Assembly (NCBI GenBank): GCA_011364965.1
Contig: RDOB01000004.1
Location: 32,001-96,000 of the forward strand
DNA from: Candidatus Heimdallarchaeota archaeon
GTDB lineage: Archaea > Asgardarchaeota > Heimdallarchaeia > Hodarchaeales > Hodarchaeaceae
Direction: 5' to 3'
Length of the DNA: 64,000 nt
Position 1 is the stretch's first letter. Each line of letters opens with the position of its first letter. Positions 27,344 through 43,624 of the stretch are shown here, in pieces. Position numbers and translations under genes: made by a program. The notes beneath the pieces were generated by a model. It was not told the origin of the DNA, made no database searches, and was given only the letters and a program-made list of their open reading frames with translations.

Positions 27344-28045
27344 TTATTGGGCCTCAAGTCCTTGCATAAAGGTCATGATCTCTCCAGCAGACTTTGGATC
27401 TTCGTGTTGAATTCCGCAATTGGAACAAACCAGATAATTAATAACTTTAACTTTGTCCCAGTATTTGATTTGATACTGACCCTGCATTAATTTTCCCCCA
27501 CAATCGCATGCTCCTTGTGAAGATTCTGAAAAATCTCTTGATACTTCCCTTACTTGACCGACTACTTTTCTTAAATAGATATTTGGATTACCAATTTTAT
27601 GAACAGCTTCGGTATCAAATCTTACCTCTAGAAATGTTATTTCACTTAATCCGGTATATCGACCGAGAAAATCATTCATTAAAAGAGAGGGAGTTAATAT
27701 TCCATTTGTGGCAAAAATGAAGTGGAATTCAGGGATTTTCTCTGTTAACTTCTGTAAACTAGAATTTAATGCCATATCTCCACTGAAATGAGCAACAAGT
27801 TCTTCATATTGCATACATTTGATGAATGTTTTACGACTTTCTGGGTCTAATGTCAATATATCCGCGATTTCTCCGTTAATAAGCTCTAATAAAGGATTAA
27901 TGTCATTTCTTGATGAAAGGGGAGTACTTGTTCTTGATAACGAATGATGAGCTATTCTATGGCCATTTACTTTCAAATAATCTATTGTTGCAGTTAGATA
28001 GAAAAGACGGTGTCGATCTACTGCAGTTGGTCTTGAATCATACAT
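27344..28045 (-). CDS. Hypothetical protein with C-terminal YgiT/MqsA-like zinc ribbon
   Basis: CDCGGKL...LVCSNCG at the C-terminus. Confidence 0.6.
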   Translation of the reverse strand: MYDSRPTAVDRHRLFYLTATIDYLKVNGHRIAHHSLSRTSTPLSSRNDINPLLELINGEIADILTLDPESRKTFIKCMQYEELVAHFSGDMALNSSLQKLTEKIPEFHFIFATNGILTPSLLMNDFLGRYTGLSEITFLEVRFDTEAVHKIGNPNIYLRKVVGQVREVSRDFSESSQGACDCGGKLMQGQYQIKYWDKVKVINYLVCSNCGIQHEDPKSAGEIMTFMQGLEAQ

Positions 28046-31784: not shown

Positions 31785-32054
31785 TTATTGGAATCGTCGG
31801 AGAGCCATCATTTCGCCTTTAAGACGGTTAGCATTTGCAGAATATAATGTTTGTCTCATATCCTTGAGACACGGGCGTCTCTCAACAAAATCATCATCCA
31901 ATAGCCTTTTCAAAGCGTATCTAACAGAACGGGTGGAACAAGAAACGCGTGTGACTATTTCCTTCGAACTCAGAGGTCCTTCTTCCACAATAACGTTGAA
32001 TACCTTTTTACATGACTCTGGTAATTCTATTTCTTCTAAAATTGTCTCAGTCAT
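31785..32054 (-). CDS. Small archaeal winged-helix (MarR-like) transcription regulator
   Basis: LPESCKKVF...GPLSSKEI...STRSVRYALKRL...DMRQTLY. Confidence 0.82.
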   Translation of the reverse strand: MTETILEEIELPESCKKVFNVIVEEGPLSSKEIVTRVSCSTRSVRYALKRLLDDDFVERRPCLKDMRQTLYSANANRLKGEMMALRRFQ

Positions 32055-32158: not shown

Positions 32159-34330
32159 CTATGTAGGTCTAAGACCTAATCGAGTAATAAATGTTGAATA
32201 GAAAGCAAAACAATCAACTGATTCTTTTTCGTCTAATGTTACTGAAGAATGGACAATTCGATTTCTAAGATTTCTGAAATGAGTTATTTTTTTATCACTG
32301 GGAAGATCAAAACCTCGTTTACGTAATTCATGCACTTGAAGTTGAAATATAGGTTTTAATTGGCCAGAACTTGAAACAATTTGTTGATAGCGCGTAGAGA
32401 GCAAATTTTTGACTGCAGCGTCTGCTTTAATGACAAACAATTCAAAATTATCTTCTTTGAAAGCATGTTTAGCTTGATTCCATAAAACACGAACATAATT
32501 GATATTCTTCTCTGCCTGTTCAGGTTCAAGAATTGAACTAGGGACTTCATTGTCTACTTTTTCTTGATAGTCGTGGACAACAAAGTTGATTCGATCTATC
32601 ACCTGACTATAACTTAAATAAGAAGAGAGATTTATAAAAATCACTGGAATAAGAAGTAGGATTGTAGGAGCAGCAAGTATAAAAAAAGCTGTTGCCACAT
32701 TTGGTAAATAATAAGGAAGTAGGAAATCTGAAAATAATATTAAACTTATTAAATTCACAAAATTAAGTATTAATAATCCTAAAAAGGGGAATAACACCCA
32801 TTCTATTCGTCTTAATATTCGTTTTGAGACTATAAGGGTTTCATTTTCAGATGATTCAATAAAATTCAGCAAAGCATAAGTACGGAACGGTACACTAGGG
32901 ATTCTTACAAGGATTGATTCACTAGGAACTTCTTTGATGCTAAAGACGCCACGGAAGCTATATTTAATAAATTTAAAAGTTTCTTTCAATGATAATGAAA
33001 ATTCCCATTGGCTTACAGGCCCATGTATTCGATAGAGTTTCCCCTGAGTATCCAGATATACTAAATATAAAGGAAAGGCTATAATGGTAATAAATGTTAT
33101 AATTGAACCTAGAACATTCCAGGCAAAAAGTGGTGGGATATGATAGTCGAAATGAACAAAAAATTGACCTACACTGGAAGATTCAGGAGATATCACCAAA
33201 TAATACAATCCCGAGTCAACTGCGTCTAATAATATCTCAAAATTTTTATCTATTGTTTGTAAAGCCTCGTAGCCAGTATATAATGGATTTGAATTCTGTT
33301 TTCCTTCATCGAAGATTTCTACTGTGGCAAATTCCAGTATTTTTGCATCAGTAGTATTTGGACCAAATACATGAATAAATACATCTGATCTGCTAGTGTT
33401 TACATAAAACCAAAAAAAATACACTCTTCGAGGAGTAAAACCCTGAACTTGTCTAATTGATAGAGTATGATTATAAGGCAATTCAATTGCAGTTTCAAAA
33501 CTATAACCAAATCCTTCAGACGTTATAGAGATATTATATATCCCAATTGGTGATGTGTCTGCTGGTTTATGTCGAATTTTAATAAAATATTGATCAGAAA
33601 CACTTGGATTCCAAGAATAATTAAAAGATCCGCTAATCTCGGTTTCGGTTAGAACTGGATTTTGAGGATAAAGTTCACGGTAAATCGTGATTTTTGCTTC
33701 AAATAGTACCGCAGGGGTTATTTCTCTCAATGAGAGTGTACTATTCTGATTTTCGTCTAAACTTACTTTCCAGTAGTGGGTTTCATGATCAATTGAAAAA
33801 TTTGCTTGAAATTGCGATTCATCGATGGCTAGTGCAGAGACTTCATTGAAACCACTCGAAGGGATCGTTGCTAGAATTGAATAGGAATAATTCTCTGATT
33901 TATCAGGACGAATGTCATCAAGTTGTATTCTCCAATCACCAACAATAGATACTTGCCACATCCCAAGATATTTGCTAGGGTGTATAATTTGTACATCTTC
34001 ATTGTCTAATTTAATATTAGAAGGATTATATAGAGATACATTAATTCCAGATCTTGGAATGATGGAAAAATAAACTAATTGACCTCTATTGAGATCTTGA
34101 AGAATCCAATTGTGAGTGTGGGATTCATTTGTGAACTCATTAGATTGAGAAATTGAATCTGTTAAAAAAAAGGTATTATTATCATCTTGGATCGTTTTAG
34201 GCATTATAAGTAATGAAGAGGGAGGTTCTAGAAAATTCTGACTTGAACTAAAATCATTAGTTTCAAATAAAAAGCTTGAAATTATAAGACAAAGAAAGAG
34301 TGATAATAAGAACGCTTTTAGTGGTTTCAT
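32159..34330 (-). CDS. Receptor-like membrane protein: signal peptide, PPC-like beta-sandwich repeats, 3 TM, C-terminal HEPN-like domain
   Basis: Hydrophobic N-terminus; repeated 'FSIDHETHYWKV', 'SDQYFIKI', 'SGLYYLVI' modules; TMs near aa 404-426, 511-534, 545-570; C-terminal RNLRNRIVH (RxxxxH). Confidence 0.65.
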   Translation of the reverse strand: MKPLKAFLLSLFLCLIISSFLFETNDFSSSQNFLEPPSSLLIMPKTIQDDNNTFFLTDSISQSNEFTNESHTHNWILQDLNRGQLVYFSIIPRSGINVSLYNPSNIKLDNEDVQIIHPSKYLGMWQVSIVGDWRIQLDDIRPDKSENYSYSILATIPSSGFNEVSALAIDESQFQANFSIDHETHYWKVSLDENQNSTLSLREITPAVLFEAKITIYRELYPQNPVLTETEISGSFNYSWNPSVSDQYFIKIRHKPADTSPIGIYNISITSEGFGYSFETAIELPYNHTLSIRQVQGFTPRRVYFFWFYVNTSRSDVFIHVFGPNTTDAKILEFATVEIFDEGKQNSNPLYTGYEALQTIDKNFEILLDAVDSGLYYLVISPESSSVGQFFVHFDYHIPPLFAWNVLGSIITFITIIAFPLYLVYLDTQGKLYRIHGPVSQWEFSLSLKETFKFIKYSFRGVFSIKEVPSESILVRIPSVPFRTYALLNFIESSENETLIVSKRILRRIEWVLFPFLGLLILNFVNLISLILFSDFLLPYYLPNVATAFFILAAPTILLLIPVIFINLSSYLSYSQVIDRINFVVHDYQEKVDNEVPSSILEPEQAEKNINYVRVLWNQAKHAFKEDNFELFVIKADAAVKNLLSTRYQQIVSSSGQLKPIFQLQVHELRKRGFDLPSDKKITHFRNLRNRIVHSSVTLDEKESVDCFAFYSTFITRLGLRPT

Positions 34331-34521: not shown

Positions 34522-35151
34522 TTGAACCAAAATATTCGAGTTTTTAAAAAGAGACTTCAGATTGCAGAAAAGAAATGGAATGCAGTTCAAGCTCAATCAA
34601 TCAAAGCCATAAATACAATACTTGGGACTTTATCTAGATTAAATCTAATCCAACAAAGAGGTGCTTTTTCGGAGGATCTACTCGCAAAATTTCCTGATGT
34701 TCCTGAAAGAATATCCTTTCACCTGGCAGAATTGATAAATAAGAGCATTCATGATTTGAATATATACTTAAGTCAATTAAACGAAATTGTTAATGAAATG
34801 CGCAAAATAGAAGAGCAATTTCGGCAAGACTATTTATTAATAATCAAAACACAATATTCGGAGGGTAATCAATCCTGGTCACATGATCTGGAAACTCTTG
34901 AACAAGCAGAGAGGACTTTTCAAGAAATTGTTGATATGTATGATCGCGAATTATCACTCAGGAAAGAAATACTTAGCACAACTCAAAATAGCTCCTTATT
35001 TCAACCGAATTCACTAATAATCTATCTAACATTGTGGGCAGGAGAGATATATATTGAACATAACCGAATTCATGAATTAATTGAAGAATTCATGCAAGCA
35101 GAAAAGGTTTGTGAGAGAGTTCTCCAGTCTCAAGATTCGATGAGTCCTTAA
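34522..35151 (+). CDS. CINP/C1orf109-like helical protein
   Basis: KKWNAVQAQSIKAIN, LAKFPDVPERI, MYDRELSLRKEI, YLTLWAGEIYIE. Confidence 0.6.
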   Translation: MNQNIRVFKKRLQIAEKKWNAVQAQSIKAINTILGTLSRLNLIQQRGAFSEDLLAKFPDVPERISFHLAELINKSIHDLNIYLSQLNEIVNEMRKIEEQFRQDYLLIIKTQYSEGNQSWSHDLETLEQAERTFQEIVDMYDRELSLRKEILSTTQNSSLFQPNSLIIYLTLWAGEIYIEHNRIHELIEEFMQAEKVCERVLQSQDSMSP

Positions 35152-36974: not shown

Positions 36975-38813
36975 ATGGATTTTGAAGTCATTAAGACGGA
37001 AGGTTGGGGAAAATTAGGTAAATTGAATAATGATGTCGAGATACTTACTCCCAATATTATTGATACATCTTTGTTTAAAGGAAGTAAAAATAAAGGATTA
37101 TCTTTTGAATGTATAAGCTATCCTTCTTTACAAAATCAGGGTAAGGATATTAATTCTATAAAATCCTTTTATGATTTATTTCCTAAAGATTTCAATGAGA
37201 ACCATAAATTCAATTTTGATTTTCACATTATACCTTGGGATTTACCAACTATTTATCTTGGAAATATTAAATCCTATTTAGAGAAAATTAGAGCATTAGA
37301 AATTAAAGAGAATGCAGAAGAACCAAATAAATTTTTCGTTGTGAACATTCCATACAGAAAATCAAAAGAGAATATCTTTGAATTATTAAAGCAATCAAAA
37401 CTTATCAAAGGAGTAATTCTCGGAGATATTTCATCCTTCTTGACAAATCCCATCAATTTACTACATTATATCAAATGGGTTAACCCTTGGGCTCAGAATG
37501 ATAAAATATTTCTAGCTTCGGGTGTACCAAAAAGCTTTATCCCTTTATTATCCTATTTGGGAATAGATATCTTTGATACAATGTATCTAGAAATGCAATC
37601 AATCACAAATTTTCCTAATTTAGAGTTATTACTTGAATTAAAACAATCCAAAGAATCTATTCTTGAAACAATACATCATACTCAAGAAGCATTAAGATTG
37701 GGCAAATTACGGGATTTAGTAAGGATTTATGCTAATTCCTTTCCTCCATTAAAAACAATTCTAAGATTGATTGACAAAGAATTAAACCTAGAGTTAGGGA
37801 ATGCCTTATATACATCTAGTACGCTTTATTGTACAGATGAAACAGATTTTACAAGGCCTGAAGTGACACGATTTCGAAAGAGAATAAAAGAACGATATTT
37901 CCCTCCGGATTATTTAGCTGGAATAATTTTCCTTCCTTGTTCTGCTAAAAAACCCTACTCTCAATCAAGATCTCATCAGATGTTCCAAGCCAGTATTCGA
38001 AAACGGATAAAAAGAAAACGCCATCTTATTCATGAAGTTATAATTACGAGCCCTCTTGGCATTGTTCCTCGTGAATTGGAGTATACATTTCCCGCGGCCC
38101 ACTACGATATTCCTGTAACAGGTGATTGGAGTGAGATTGAAAGAAATTTGTTAAAAGAGGATATAACAAACTTTTTGGGAAAAATCAACCCAAATCTGCC
38201 AATAGTAGGATATGTTGAGGGACCTGAGAAGGAAGTATTGGATTCTATCTCTAAAAAGGTAAATAGACCAATGTATCTTGTTTCAGAAGATTACAAATCA
38301 TTAACTTCGAAAGGTGCTTTATCGGAGTTTTCTACCTTATTAGCTGATGCATTCGAAAATATATCCCTAATAAAAGTCGAAGATCAGACAATACGCTTCC
38401 TTAAGGCGATTGCAGACTTCCAATTTGGTAAAGGAGTAGGAAAACAGCTTTTCTCAGGAAATATCAACATATTTGGAAGAAAGGAATTAGGGTTACGGGT
38501 TAAGAGAAACGAAGAGCATCTGGTTACATTCAACCCAGTTAACGGATTTCTAACACTTTCATTACAAGCAGCGAACTTAATATTAGACAAAACTCCCAAT
38601 ATAGTGGTTTTTGATGGAGAAAAAATAATTGGATCAACAATATTCTCAAAAGGAATTATAGAAGCTAATTCAGAGATACGATCTGGAGATGAAGTCATTG
38701 TATTAAATTCTAATAGACAGATTATTGGTGTGGGGACATCTTACCTTGCTGGAGACTTATTAGTGAGAATGAAGAAAGGAAAGGGAATTTCCATAAGAAA
38801 AAAGGTGAAATGA
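36975..38813 (+). CDS. arcS: Archaeosine synthase subunit alpha (ArcS/TgtA2) with PUA domain
   Basis: LPCSAKKPYSQSRSH, TSPLGIVPRELE, PAAHYDIPVTGDW, IADFQFG, C-terminal PUA (IRSGDEV). Confidence 0.92.
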   Translation: MDFEVIKTEGWGKLGKLNNDVEILTPNIIDTSLFKGSKNKGLSFECISYPSLQNQGKDINSIKSFYDLFPKDFNENHKFNFDFHIIPWDLPTIYLGNIKSYLEKIRALEIKENAEEPNKFFVVNIPYRKSKENIFELLKQSKLIKGVILGDISSFLTNPINLLHYIKWVNPWAQNDKIFLASGVPKSFIPLLSYLGIDIFDTMYLEMQSITNFPNLELLLELKQSKESILETIHHTQEALRLGKLRDLVRIYANSFPPLKTILRLIDKELNLELGNALYTSSTLYCTDETDFTRPEVTRFRKRIKERYFPPDYLAGIIFLPCSAKKPYSQSRSHQMFQASIRKRIKRKRHLIHEVIITSPLGIVPRELEYTFPAAHYDIPVTGDWSEIERNLLKEDITNFLGKINPNLPIVGYVEGPEKEVLDSISKKVNRPMYLVSEDYKSLTSKGALSEFSTLLADAFENISLIKVEDQTIRFLKAIADFQFGKGVGKQLFSGNINIFGRKELGLRVKRNEEHLVTFNPVNGFLTLSLQAANLILDKTPNIVVFDGEKIIGSTIFSKGIIEANSEIRSGDEVIVLNSNRQIIGVGTSYLAGDLLVRMKKGKGISIRKKVK

Positions 38814-39902
38814 TTGGTTAATCTTTTGGTTGCTTCAGAAATAGCTAGAATACGTAGAGAGTATCTTGAACTTTTGGATCCTGATTCAACAGGAAAAATT
38901 TGGCATCGAATTGACGAAATGGAAGACAATATTGTAATTACGATGGTGATCCCATCTAGGGGATGTAGCTGGGCTTTGTCGGAAGCAGGAGGGTGTTCTG
39001 TGTGTGGGTATGTAAATGATTCATCTAGAGACAAAGAAATTCCTAAACAGAAAATATTGAGAGTATTGAATGAAGTTTTACATCAAATTCCGCAAAAAAA
39101 ATATGTAGAACTTAAAATTTTTAACTCAGGAAGTTTTTTTGACAATAAAGATTTACCAAAAGAATTTAGAGAGGAATTATTGAAAGTTATAACCGTTTCG
39201 GAAAAAATTTCTAAATTAACCGTTGAATGCAGACCTGAATTTGTTATACAAAACCTAAATGATATAAAAGCTGCTTGTAAATTAATAAAACAAATCAAAA
39301 TGGAAATTGGACTTGGATTAGAGAGCTCAAATAATTCGATTTTGGTGAATTGTTGGAATAAAGGAACAACTCTTGAAGAGTACACTGAAAGCGTTAAAAT
39401 CCTTCAATCTCTGAACATTAGGATAAAAACATATGTTTTTGTTAAACCTCCCTTTTTAAGCGAAGCAGAAGCAATAGAGGATACATTAACTACGATTCAG
39501 CAGGCAATTGCCTCAGGAACTGATGTGGTTTCGGTAAATCCTTGTGTAGTGCAAAATGGAACTCTAGTGAGTTTTCTCTATAAAAATGATAAATATCAGC
39601 CTCCATGGTTATGGAGTGTTCTAGAAGTTATCAAAAAAACTCGTGAGAATTTTCCGGAATTGGAATTGATTTGCGATCCTACAGCTGGAGGTAAACCTCG
39701 AGGAGCTCACAACTGTGGAAAATGCGATAAAGAAGTACTCAATAGAATAAAAAAAATAGTTCAAGGAGAAAAAATGACGGAATTTGACATAAATATCTGT
39801 TCTTGTTATAAAACATGGAAATTCTTAGTCGAATCACCAGTAGAGATGATTAGGATTAGAAATCTTTCAAAATTGCGTAAACTCAATCCATTAATGGAGT
39901 GA
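38814..39902 (+). CDS. raSEA: Archaeosine biosynthesis radical SAM protein RaSEA
   Basis: RGCSWALSEAGGCSVCGY, KIFNSGSFFD, ECRPEF, KPPFLSE, RGAHNCGKC; directly after arcS. Confidence 0.9.
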   Translation: MVNLLVASEIARIRREYLELLDPDSTGKIWHRIDEMEDNIVITMVIPSRGCSWALSEAGGCSVCGYVNDSSRDKEIPKQKILRVLNEVLHQIPQKKYVELKIFNSGSFFDNKDLPKEFREELLKVITVSEKISKLTVECRPEFVIQNLNDIKAACKLIKQIKMEIGLGLESSNNSILVNCWNKGTTLEEYTESVKILQSLNIRIKTYVFVKPPFLSEAEAIEDTLTTIQQAIASGTDVVSVNPCVVQNGTLVSFLYKNDKYQPPWLWSVLEVIKKTRENFPELELICDPTAGGKPRGAHNCGKCDKEVLNRIKKIVQGEKMTEFDINICSCYKTWKFLVESPVEMIRIRNLSKLRKLNPLME

Positions 39903-39919
39903 ATTATACTTAATTTTTC

Positions 39920-41086
39920 CTATGTTTTACGAATCGCTTGAATTGCTTTATATAATTCTCCATTTTTCCCAAAAATCTCTGATTCCTCATGTTTTTCTTT
40001 TAATTCCTCTAAATATTTCTTTGATAATTTATCAATTTTTTTAGGAAATCGAACATAGAATCCAACATGCATGTCTCCACGCCTATTACTATTTGGGATT
40101 GGAAAACCCTTATTTCGAAGAGTATGTATATACCCAGATTCAGTACCAGGTTTAATGGAAATGGTTTCATTTCCATCAATCGTCGGAACTATTAATTTTG
40201 TCCCCAATATAGCGTCAGTATAACTAATTGGGTATTCTAATAGAATATCTGAACCATTTCTTTGAAAGAATGGATGAGAGGCAACATTAATGGCAAGAAG
40301 TAAATCACCTGATGGACCACCTAGTTCTCCAGGGCGTCCTTCTCCTCGAAGTACTACATGCATACCTGAATCGACTCCTGCGGGAATATCAGCTTCTACA
40401 GTACGAAATTGCTTCACCTTTCCCAATCCATCACACACTTCACATGCTGCTCCCCGGGGTAATGATTTTCCTTCACCATTACAGCGGGGGCAAGTCGTTA
40501 TATTAACAATTTGACCGAAAGCAGACCTTTGCACCTGACGAAGTTCCCCCGTTCCCTGACAGTAACCACATTCGTCTAATGATTTACCGGGTTTTACTCG
40601 TGAACCGTGACAAGTAGGACACTGAGCCCAATTAGGAACTTTTATCTTCTTTTTTAAACCATGAACCGCTTCATCGAAAGAAAGATCAAGATTTAATCTT
40701 ACATCTTGACCTCGCCTTGCTCGTGGACGAGAAGAACGGGAACGAGACCCTCTTCCTCCAAAAGCGCTGAATAAATCTTCAAAAATTCCAAGGCCACTAA
40801 AAAGATCATCAAGCCCCATACCAGAGAAATCATGAAATGAAGCTCCATTCAGACCAGAATGGCCAAACTGATCATATCTAGCACGTTTTTCGCTATCAGA
40901 TAAAACTTCGAATGCTTCTGCTATCTCTTTGAATTTTTCTTCCGCATTTGGATCATCAGGTTTCATATCTGGGTGATATTTCCGTGCTAGGCTACGAAAG
41001 GCCTTTTTTATCTCTTTTAAATCAGCAGATTTTGAGATACCCAGAACTTCATAGTAATCGCGTTTCTTTTGGCTCAGAATAATCAC
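39920..41086 (-). CDS. dnaJ: Chaperone DnaJ
   Basis: [11 protein letters not shown] motif, four CxxCxGxG-type repeats, GDL. Confidence 0.96.
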
Positions 41087-41109
41087 CCAGATTTGGATCG
41101 ATCAGGAAT

Positions 41110-42969
41110 CTAATCATCATCTACAATTTCGTAGTCGACATCCACAACTTCGGACTCCTCAGTTCCAGGTGTTCCTGCTTGAAAACCTGGACCTCCAGGT
41201 GCGCCTTGGAAACCTCCTGTCGGACCAGATTGTTGAGCTTGAGAAGCGTATAGTTTCTGAGCAAGCTCATGAGTGATTTTCTCAAGTTCCTCAGTCTTCT
41301 TATTTATCTCATCAACAGAACCAGTTGATAATATACCCTTTAGGGATTTAATCAAATTCTCTGCTTTTGATTTAGTTCCTGCATCAACTTGATTTCCAAG
41401 ATCTTTGATCATTTTCTCTGTTTGATAAATCAAGGAATCTGCTTTATTACGAGCCTCAGCTTCAGCAAGCCGTTTTGAATCTTCATTTTCGTATTGTTTT
41501 GCTTCATCGACCATTCTCTGGAAATCTTTCGCTGATAACCCACTATCACTTTTAATTGTTATTTTCTGCTCATTTCCTGTACCTAAATCTTTTGCAGAGA
41601 CATTAACTATACCATTTGCATCAATATCAAATGTAACTTCAATCTGAGGAACCCCACGAGGAGCAGGAGGGATTCCCACTAGTTGAAAACGTCCCAAGGT
41701 GATATTACCAGCAGCCATTTTTCTTTCACCTTGTAAAACATGTATTTCGACTGAGGGTTGGTTATCTGCTGCAGTAGAAAATATCTGGCTCTTTTTAGTT
41801 GGAATTGTAGTATTTCTTTCAATTAACCTAGTAAAAACTTGTCCCAATGTTTCAATACCCAAGGAAAGAGGGGTTACATCAAGTAATAGAACATCCTTTA
41901 CTTCCCCCATTAAAATTGCTGCTTGAACTGCAGCTCCAAGAGCAACACATTCATCGGGATTAATTTCCTTTGTCGGTTCTTTTCCGAAGTAGCTTCTAAG
42001 AGCTGATTGTACTGCAGGAATACGAGTTGACCCTCCAACAAGTAATATTTTATCAATATCTGATGGTTGTAGCTTAGCATCGGCCATTGCTTGACGCGTT
42101 GGACCCATAGCTGCCTCAATTAGGTCAGCAATCATTATTTCAAACTTTGATCTTGTCAATGTAAGATTCAAATGCTTCGGACCAGTTTGATCTGCGAAAA
42201 TATAGGGCAAATTAATTTCAGCAGATGTTTTTTGAGAGAGTTCAATTTTTGCTTGTTCAGCTGCATCTTTCAAACGTTGCATAGCACTAGGATCTTTTGA
42301 TAAATCTAACCCTGAACTTTTCTTGAATTCTTCAATCATCCAGTCCATGATTCTTTGATCAATATCATCGCCTCCTAACCGATTATTTCCAGAAGTTGCT
42401 TTCACTTCGAAAACACCCTCAGATAGCTCTAGAATTGAAACATCAAAGGTACCTCCACCGAGATCAAACACTAAAATCGTATCTTCTTCTTCTTTATCCA
42501 ATCCATATGCCAAGGATGCACTAGTGGGTTCATTAATAATTCGTAATACATCCAATCCAGCAATTCGACCTGCATCTTTCGTTGCTTGCCTTTGAGCATC
42601 TGAAAAATAAGCAGGAACTGTCACCACTGCTTGTTTTATTGGTTCACCTAGATACGCCTCAGCATCCCTTTTAAGCTTCTGAAGTATCATTGCGCTGATT
42701 TCAGGGGGTTTGTACACTTTTCCATCGATAGTGACGGTGTAATTTGTACCCATCTCTCTTTTTATTGATCGAATAGTCCTCTCAGGGTTAGAGATAGCTT
42801 GGCGTTTTGCTAAAATCCCAACTACTCTTTCTCCTTCCTTTGTGATAGTAACAACGGAAGGAGTGATTCTTTGTCCTTCTGCATTAGGAATAATTACTGG
42901 TTTTCCACCTTCCATCATTGCGATGGCAGAAAATGTTGTTCCTAGATCTATACCAATTGCTCTAGCCAT
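41110..42969 (-). CDS. dnaK: Chaperone DnaK (Hsp70)
   Basis: [30 protein letters not shown]; GTG 42978 lies within a GGTGA RBS, so ATG 42969 preferred. Confidence 0.98.
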
Positions 42970-42979
42970 AATAATCACC

Positions 42980-43624
42980 TTATTCTTTTTTCGCTATAAC
43001 CACTTTTGTTGGTCTTAGTAATTCATCATTTAACATGTATCCAGCCTGAACTTCTTCAATAATTATATCTTCATCTACATTATCGTCTTTTTTTGTATAT
43101 ACAGCTTCATGGTAGTTGGGATCAAATGGTTTCCCCACTGCATTGATTCTTGTAACTCCTTCATTTTTTAATATAGAATCAAAGTGGGTAAAAACCGCTT
43201 TAAATCCATCAACCAATATTTTTTCCTCTGTGGTAGATACAGAGAAAAGAGTAGCATTCGCTCTTTCAAAACTATCTGCCAAATCTATAAGTTTTAGTAA
43301 AAGCTTACGATTCCCTTGTTTCGTTAATCTAGAGAATTCATTTCTATTCCGTTTTTCCAAATTTTCATAATCGGCCAAAGCACGCAAATATCTATCATAT
43401 AATTTAGTATATTCAGTCTCTTTTTCCTCTAGTTTTTCATAAAGCTGTTTTATTTCTTTTAAAGCTTCATTTTCCGAAGATAATGTTGTTTTAGAAGCTA
43501 TTTCATCTTTACCTTTAGATTTGGATGTTTGATCTATTTTCTCAGCTTCTTCGATTTGATAATCGATATCAACGACTTCTGGTTCGCTATTACTTTTTTC
43601 ACGTTTCTGAGCCATTAGAATCAT
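42980..43624 (-). CDS. grpE: Nucleotide exchange factor GrpE
   Basis: [40 protein letters not shown]. Confidence 0.95.

Follow-up and report, generated by a model that had tools for sequence, protein, structure and literature searches.

Transmembrane (TM) proteins carrying a HEPN domain have been predicted in bacteria, where three groups were distinguished, i.e., a DUF4145-type TM-HEPN with a WP signature, an Abi2/Swt1-type TM-HEPN, and a HEPN-2TM-Zn-ribbon group (Anantharaman, Makarova, Burroughs, Koonin, and Aravind, 2013; PMC3710099, section 15). An Ire1-like, stimulus-dependent degradation of RNA was proposed for these TM-HEPN proteins, none of which was reported as tested within that paper. 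The same work predicted that the eukaryotic protein C6orf70/ERMARD is a HEPN protein with a single TM helix, located at the membrane of the endoplasmic reticulum (ER). We describe here a gene of Candidatus Heimdallarchaeota archaeon (Asgardarchaeota, Hodarchaeales) for which the bacterial membrane HEPN proteins are the closest precedent. The gene is found in a stretch of 64,000 nucleotides (contig RDOB01000004.1 of assembly GCA_011364965.1, positions 32,001 to 96,000), which is called the window hereinafter. According to the list of open reading frames (ORFs) and the translation, it is an uninterrupted ORF of 723 aa (P0001) that occupies positions 32159-34330 of the window, stop codon included, on the minus strand, as do all the protein segments whose coordinates are given below. 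A preliminary description, made from the letters of the DNA, had considered the product as a receptor-like protein with a cytoplasmic HEPN ribonuclease motif and an IRE1-like logic. Our analysis leads us to propose, with a probability of about one half, a surface glycoprotein whose HEPN-fold domain would cut RNA at the inner face of the membrane, its activity being set by clustering.

The protein shares with the bacterial membrane HEPN proteins (Anantharaman et al., 2013; PMC3710099) a predicted cytoplasmic HEPN domain with an intact Rx4-6H motif, TM segments, and possible outer sensor parts, and the logic proposed in both cases is that a stimulus at the surface alters RNA stability inside the cell. 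A further likeness to the DUF4145-type TM-HEPN is that four members of the present family match DUF4145 weakly. In contrast to the bacterial proteins, the present family is archaeal, is confined to one order, and is encoded by a single-copy core gene; its ectodomain is a putatively glycosylated structure of 350 aa with three repeats, three TM segments follow it, and there is an extra cytoplasmic alpha/beta domain. The protein also differs in that it matches none of the bacterial membrane HEPN families at threshold. The family is set apart by its lineage, its three-repeat ectodomain with predicted glycosylation, its extra cytoplasmic domain, and its core-gene status; the TM-HEPN layout had already been anticipated for bacteria. 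The family has no Pfam entry, and we found no description of it in the literature on HEPN, IRE1, and Asgard/Hodarchaeales. A coupling of surface stimuli to RNA decay was predicted in 2013 for HEPN proteins tethered to the membrane, and hardly any of them, Ire1 apart, has been tested. The present family offers a clean test case: its gene is universal and occurs in a single copy within the order of archaea closest to eukaryotes, the well-folded domain of 134 aa could be expressed separately, and four control mutations are obvious. If the domain is active, it would provide a kinase-free link of the cell surface to RNA cleavage and a conserved signaling component of the Asgard cell envelope; if it is inactive, it would represent a new and strongly constrained membrane-side binding module.

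A HEPN fold is well supported by modeling and structure comparison for the C-terminal domain (aa 603-723; window 32162-32524). Modeled alone, this domain reached a predicted local distance difference test score (pLDDT) of 90. In the AlphaFold2 (AF2) model the domain is an up-down bundle of four helices in which an insert separates helix 2 from helix 3, a trait of the HEPN superfamily (helix 1, aa 603-625; helix 2, aa 629-651; insert, aa 662-671; helix 3, aa 679-695; helix 4, aa 701-717). In a wide structure search (VIA) that covered 48,161 representative chains, HEPN-type domains filled most of the top ranks. The best match was AF_0298 (2hsb; Z 12.1, root mean square deviation of 2.9 over 119 residues), and further matches were the sacsin HEPN (Z 10.9) and the AbiA HEPN (Z 10.2), then TT1696, HepT toxins, Csm6, and AbiV, values that have to be read with the warning of the search tool that helical bundles with Z below about 13 may share only a common arrangement. 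Since helical bundles reach such Z values easily, we have also relied on the grammar of the motif, which is described below. In a second structure look, the first 39 rows were without exception HEPN or related nucleotidyltransferase substrate-binding domains. The Foldseek comparison that the preliminary description had proposed also returned 2hsb as the top match, with template modeling scores (TM-scores) of 0.68 and 0.72 and weak E-values of at least 0.05 for the matches of the domain, and the top cluster in the ESM Atlas was 99% PF05168 HEPN (TM-score 0.67). Profile searches with 31 family members gave sub-threshold matches to HEPN_RiboL-PSP (PF18735) for 21 of them, with a best E of 2e-4, and others to Cthe_2314, Ymh, HEPN, and HepT, as well as the four to DUF4145 already mentioned. 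When compared by hhalign with an alignment of 24 HepT sequences from related genomes, the domain was placed co-linearly, with RN...H on RN...H, at a non-significant E of 0.024 and 2% probability, and the comparison with two single PF05168 HEPN proteins of its own genome gave short alignments of helices 1 and 2 only (E 0.02-0.13).

The rules described for HEPN domains (Anantharaman et al., 2013; PMC3710099) state that the residue after the Arg of the motif is usually N, D, or H, that helix 2 carries an acidic residue, usually as Ex3[KR], and that inserts are found between helices 2 and 3. The two strings on which the preliminary description was based, QAKHAF...KNLL and RNLRNRIVH, correspond to aa 619-644 and aa 686-694, respectively. 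Within the latter, the candidate catalytic motif R689-N690-R-I-V-H694 (window 32249-32266) closes the helix formed by aa 679-695, i.e., it is located where helix 3 ends, and this placement of R689-N690-x3-H694 agrees with the HEPN rule. The string D637-A-A-V-K641 (window 32408-32422), located inside the helix of aa 629-651, is the counterpart of the acidic motif of helix 2, with Asp instead of Glu. The residues R689, N690, H694, D637, Q650, D675, R717, G719, and R721 are each conserved in 49 of 49 full-length homologues, some of them only 25% identical overall, and K641 is kept in 48 of them. The 723-aa protein contains three Rx4-6H strings when 1.8 are expected by chance, and thus the string alone is meaningless; only R689-H694 is both invariant and located where the HEPN fold requires it. 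The conservation of RxxxxH in homologues, a check named in the preliminary description, was in this way borne out at the canonical position, and the HEPN fold that it had assumed is backed by the four structural comparisons described above.

The HEPN domain is the most conserved part of the protein. In the main clade its mean identity is 81%, compared with 40-59% for every other region, the upper value being that of the alpha/beta domain; in a distant clade it is 51%, compared with 13-26%. Thus, the cytoplasmic end is much more constrained than the outer part. The three-repeat ectodomain is homologous throughout the two full-length clades, and other N-terminal parts were seen only in rare proteins that are more distant. 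The same C-terminal domain was thus also found, rarely, in other contexts. It is located behind leucine-rich repeats in P0095 (419 aa, from an ENA metagenome) and behind one TM helix in P0094, with RN..H intact in the former and the motif intact in the latter, and behind an N-terminal Cys-rich Zn ribbon in P0089 (278 aa), where Arg takes the place of the His. A separate family of Asgard proteins, about 330 aa long (P0096, P0099-P0109; G297-G308), has a Zn ribbon (PF13248) and a TM block ahead of the domain, and its motif reads R-E/D-x3-K, the His being lost. The rare paralogous forms with Lys or Arg instead of His keep the residues that define the fold, indicating that the fold does not need the His, and therefore its invariance in the receptor-like family points to function. 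The 313-aa protein P0084, which has no ectodomain, was considered as a minimal form and was not used, since a 59-aa fragment precedes it at the end of a contig and a truncation or a frameshift may be involved.

We identified about 60 near-full-length homologues (45-72% identity) in metagenome-assembled genomes mostly labelled Hodarchaeales, Hodarchaeota, or Heimdallarchaeota, and a search of 1.8 billion representatives added the distant full-length clade (25-33% identity) and very little besides. The gene is single-copy in its own genome and is present in 21/21 genomes of the same genus-level group and in both genomes of the other family of the order, i.e., in 23/23 Hodarchaeales genomes searched. 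The next family of the class gave 0 of 31 genomes, and the remainder of the class did not yield the gene either. The matches from other parts of the phylum were to the C-terminal domain only, and they come from the paralogous family.

The topology was deduced from hydropathy, the positive-inside rule, and the distribution of NxS/T sequons. Four hydrophobic segments were detected (aa 4-22, 404-428, 512-533, and 546-570). The first of them, a hydrophobic helix preceded by K2 and K5 near the N-terminus, belongs to a putative signal peptide or N-terminal membrane anchor (aa 1-24; window 34259-34330; hydropathy peak 2.36, AF2 helix at aa 3-22). Eleven of the 13 sequons are located within aa 25-403, and five homologues show a like bias, with 10-14 sequons in the ectodomain versus 1-4 in the rest. 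The Lys and Arg residues are clustered behind TM1 and ahead of TM2 (KLYR, KRILRR), and there are none in the TM2-TM3 loop. The bias of the sequons and the placement of Lys/Arg together indicate that the N-terminal part would be outside and the C-terminal domain inside the cell. The inside location of the latter is well supported by these sequence features and is predicted no matter if the first helix is cleaved off as a signal peptide or stays in place as an anchor.

The full-length AF2 model, built with 49 homologues as input (mean pLDDT 86), presents in this order three beta-sandwich modules, TM1, the alpha/beta domain, a TM hairpin, a linker at aa 594-599, and a five-helix domain at aa 603-717, and it shows a low-confidence linker (aa 25-49) after the N-terminal helix. 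The ectodomain modules, all of the jelly-roll type, comprise aa 50-160 (module 1; window 33851-34183; beta-sandwich with pLDDT of about 90), aa 161-280 (module 2; window 33491-33850), and aa 281-403 (module 3; window 33122-33490). According to the hhalign comparisons they are true repeats, with 98% probability and E 7e-14 for modules 2 and 3, 94% and E 1e-7 for modules 1 and 2, and 0.1% for a control comparison of an ectodomain module with the alpha/beta domain. Foldseek searches with the full-length model grouped the modules with jelly rolls, e.g., the tandem collagen-binding domains of ColG (E 6e-11), CUB domains, and the SIDT1 ectodomain, and these matches give a predicted fold class and no ligand. 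TM1, which would run from outside to inside (aa 404-428; window 33047-33121; hydropathy peak 2.33, AF2 helix at aa 406-428), is followed by the small alpha/beta domain, predicted to be cytoplasmic (aa 429-507, about 75 aa; window 32810-33046; pLDDT 84-92), with five strands and two helices of unequal length, one of them short, in the model. This domain had no Pfam match, and an ESM Atlas feature search with aa 426-723 gave no usable match. Hydropathy and AF2 place TM2 and TM3, with the short outer loop that joins them and that is free of Lys and Arg, at aa 508-570 (window 32621-32809). In the AF2 model one single helix spans aa 545-593, comprising TM3 and a cytoplasmic run-on, so that the segment of aa 571-602 (window 32525-32620) consists of this extension up to aa 593 and then of a flexible linker, with pLDDT below 50 at aa 594-599, ahead of the HEPN domain. 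This stalk and linker is the least conserved cytoplasmic part (38% identity). The extracellular repeated beta-sandwich modules with sequons and the cytoplasmic C-terminal domain that the preliminary description had postulated thus agree with the hhalign repeats, the hydropathy, the Lys/Arg pattern, and the sequon bias.

The dimerization of the domain, by which HEPN ribonucleases are activated according to the preliminary description, was also predicted. A symmetric homodimer of the HEPN domain was modeled with an interaction score (ipSAE) of 0.61, compared with 0.00 for the best control, a mark that 20 of 30 known homodimers and 1 of 23 monomers reached; at least 96% of the contacts agree between runs and the pLDDT of the partner is at least 84, values to which the presence of HEPN dimers in the training data of the predictor may contribute. 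This prediction supports the self-binding of the HEPN domain, and does not show it. The predicted interface comprises aa 600-610, Q650-I651, K671-D675, and T716-R721, and it takes in Q650 as well as the RGFD loop, which is invariant, and the TRLGLR tail; the position of this loop and tail at the interface would explain their conservation. Judging from the order of the helices, the interface would be located at the end of the bundle near the membrane, where helix 1 starts, and the motif at the opposite end.

These data can be compared with other known systems. Ire1 and RNase L, whose KEN domain is a HEPN derivative, are activated by self-association. The present protein resembles them in that a sensor on the outer or luminal side would be followed by a membrane span and, in the cytoplasm, by a HEPN-type ribonuclease domain, the archaeal cell exterior being topologically equivalent to the ER lumen, and a comparison of layout with Ire1 is drawn in PMC3710099 as well. 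However, the present protein lacks a kinase or pseudokinase, and a TM hairpin and the 75-aa alpha/beta domain precede its HEPN domain. No kinase family appeared in Pfam or NCBIfam scans of the 723-aa protein at E-values up to 10, in agreement with the preliminary description, which had anticipated the absence of both a kinase and a neighboring antitoxin. No KEN match was found among the Pfam families listed for the 31 members, the PDB sequences, or the 50 best structural rows, and the ectodomain is predicted to be a jelly-roll repeat and not the luminal fold of Ire1. Therefore, the IRE1-like logic holds as an analogy of layout, i.e., of the order of the parts, and no homology to Ire1, either in a KEN domain or in the luminal domain, was found.

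The protein is also like C6orf70/ERMARD in being a membrane-tethered, predicted active HEPN protein of a lineage leading to or next to eukaryotes, and unlike it in that C6orf70/ERMARD has one TM helix, another architecture, and no repeat ectodomain; the general homologue and Pfam searches, which did not include a specific profile comparison with C6orf70/ERMARD, showed no sequence link. The proteins associated with a minimal nucleotidyltransferase (AF_0298/2hsb and the HepT structures 5yep and 7ae8; PF05168/PF01934) are the best structural matches (Z 9-12), and they share the helix order and the position of the motif, RNRIVH resembling the RNxxxH of HepT. In contrast, those proteins are small, soluble, paired with a nucleotidyltransferase antitoxin, patchy, and multi-copy, whereas the present one is membrane-bound, partnerless in that sense, and encoded by a core gene. 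The same genome encodes two classical pairs, at L009 (contig C11) and L010 (contig C15), in which a PF05168 HEPN protein goes together with a minimal nucleotidyltransferase that is fused to a winged-helix N-terminus, and thus toxin-antitoxin-type HEPN genes coexist with the membrane form. Finally, Csx28 is a small accessory protein of Cas13b with a TM helix and a divergent HEPN motif that has been reported to form a membrane pore. The present protein resembles it in having a membrane-anchored HEPN-like domain, and differs from it in its full motif, its large ectodomain, and the absence of a CRISPR context.

In the mechanism that we favor, the HEPN domain would act as an endoribonuclease that needs no metal and that cuts RNA at the membrane's inner face, and the binding of a ligand to the ectodomain would drive the proximity or clustering of the molecules in the membrane and in this way set the activity, with no rigid conformational relay. 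Clustering is proposed over a rigid relay because the predicted dimer contacts are near the membrane, the motif would be at the far end, and the tether is flexible; a rigid transmembrane relay is weakened by the fact that the HEPN domain hangs on the low-confidence linker of aa 594-599. Such a protein could, for example, serve in the degradation or processing of RNAs close to the membrane or respond to stress of the envelope, since a single-copy core gene suggests a housekeeping or signaling function rather than defence. The ribonuclease activity of the HEPN domain is likely but unproven, and a gating by the ectodomain would be plausible. Several points, besides the warning on Z values, weigh against this mechanism. 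No HEPN family was matched at its curated threshold by any sequence profile; for PF18735 the cut-off is 28.4 bits, and the domain alone reached 17.8, the full-length protein 7.2, and the genome search 14. The profile of the C-terminal domain alignment, run against PDB sequences, retrieved no HEPN and nothing significant. The extreme conservation of the whole domain makes the invariance of the motif less specific than it appears. Characterized HEPN ribonucleases set two motifs face to face, and the predicted interface does not contain the motif (aa 689-694), which weakens the idea of a canonical composite active site in the modeled dimer. If the placement at opposite ends is right, the predicted dimer does not form a face-to-face site, and, given the flexible tether, activity would need a further association, e.g., the clustering of dimers. 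This further association, which the model suggests, is the weakest step of the account. Moreover, a ribonuclease left unrestrained in the cytoplasm would do harm, and there is no identified inhibitor; it is the ribonuclease activity, the substrate, and the gating alike that we infer.

In an alternative explanation, the HEPN domain would not cut and would serve to bind or assemble RNA, a nucleotide, or a conserved protein partner, which it would tether to the membrane under the surface glycoprotein, or just to keep the protein together as a dimer. Many HEPN domains are non-catalytic, acting as binders (Anantharaman et al., 2013; PMC3710099), the nearest structural neighbors, AF_0298 and the sacsin HEPN, are no established ribonucleases, and there are paralogous membrane forms without the His. 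The near-total conservation of the surface (81% identity) would also fit a conserved protein or RNA partner, and the predicted dimer interface uses invariant residues other than the motif. However, the full catalytic grammar, i.e., R, N, H, and the acidic residue of helix 2, is invariant in all 49 homologues, and the non-catalytic families have typically lost part of it (PMC3710099), so a non-cutting domain is an alternative to be kept in mind and, in our opinion, somewhat unlikely. A mainly structural or adhesive surface protein, such as an envelope component, a glycan binder, or a mediator of cell-cell contact, whose cytoplasmic end only anchors or organizes it, would account for the large, putatively glycosylated ectodomain with its three collagen-binding-domain- or CUB-like jelly rolls and for a gene that is universal and single-copy, as that of an envelope component should be. 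Yet a function outside the cell would predict the opposite pattern of conservation to that observed, since the HEPN domain is far more constrained than the ectodomain (81% versus 40-51% in the main clade and 51% versus 20-25% in the distant clade), and this renders the structural role improbable.

The preliminary description had also suggested an antiviral abortive response. In such a response, the attachment of a virus would be sensed by the ectodomain, and the HEPN ribonuclease would then shut the cell down. HEPN ribonucleases are frequent among defence effectors, sensors of the membrane-HEPN type have been put forward for bacteria (PMC3710099), and one weak PADLOC match to the CARF_HEPN model was obtained with the C-terminal domain alone (E 0.011). 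Nevertheless, the full-length protein had no PADLOC match, none of the scanned neighbors matched a known defence effector, and the downstream winged helix-turn-helix gene gave only weak matches to the Csa3, CARF, PsyrT, and SoFic models. In contrast to this core gene, present in 23/23 genomes of the order and surrounded by conserved housekeeping neighbors that include DnaJ and an ArcS-like gene, the classical HepT-like HEPN genes of the same genomes are patchy (7/21 genomes, 0-4 copies). There is no antitoxin next door, as no minimal nucleotidyltransferase gene adjoins the target either here or in the homologous loci L001, L002, L003, L006, L012, and L014. The locus is no defence island, and the core gene, the conserved non-defence neighborhood, the lack of a PADLOC match, and the lack of an antitoxin together place this explanation lowest; the abortive response is thus weakened, and we consider a defence role unlikely. 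The reading that we prefer, an RNA-cutting domain set by clustering, admits an ambitious version in which the protein would be an order-wide sensor ribonuclease of Hodarchaeales, the archaea placed closest to eukaryotes; its ectodomain would monitor the space beyond the membrane, the topological equivalent of the ER lumen, and its HEPN domains, activated by clustering, would cleave membrane-proximal RNAs as a kinase-free functional counterpart of Ire1 and its regulated decay. This version appears to us doubtful.

Concerning the neighborhood, the genes that adjoin the target here encode a MarR-type winged helix-turn-helix protein, a functionally uncharacterized protein of 412 aa, and a CA109-like protein. 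The first of them is an 89-aa MarR/TrmB-type winged-helix protein (window 31785-32054, minus strand), encoded on the same strand as the target and 105 bp downstream of it; L002 has a counterpart and none was called in L001, and thus it is no conserved partner. The divergent upstream neighbor (window 34522-35151, plus strand) matches PF15011 CA109-like (ribosome biogenesis protein C1orf109-like) with 39 bits, the cut-off being 27, and an E of 1e-9, and this ORF also shows a weak match to PF05168 HEPN (E 0.055). The CA109-like gene adjoins the target in L001 and L002, is 1.5 kb away in the distant L003 (29% identical), and did not turn up within 7 kb of the target in any of L006, L012, and L014; a 206-aa gene of L006 was tested as a CA109-like protein and was ruled out. 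Similarly, the 450-aa divergent neighbor in L014, the most distant locus, was compared with the 470-aa neighbor found here and gave no match. The divergent promoter region, aligned with those of two orthologous loci, revealed no conserved element.

A further gene of the window (27344-28045, minus strand) encodes a 233-aa protein with a Cys-rich C-terminal ribbon that belongs to no Pfam family. It is restricted to the order like the target, being present in 19/21 and 2/2 genomes, with one weak match elsewhere, and it is the directly divergent neighbor of the target in L003, L012, and L013, the distance being 2.5 kb in L006 and 4 kb here. This protein is a candidate functional partner, which we offer as a lead and not as a finding.

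The conserved order of the neighborhood comprises DnaJ, a radical-SAM gene, a DUF5591-TGT_C2-PUA gene, the gene of the 470-aa protein, the CA109-like gene, and the HEPN-receptor gene. In the window, the protein with DUF5591, TGT_C2, and PUA domains is encoded directly before the radical-SAM protein (36975-39902, plus strand), an arrangement that is syntenic in L001 and L002, and we take this pair to resemble the archaeosine pair ArcS/RaSEA. A heat-shock cluster with DnaJ, DnaK, and GrpE (39920-43624, minus strand) is located a few kb from the target and is likewise syntenic in L001 and L002.

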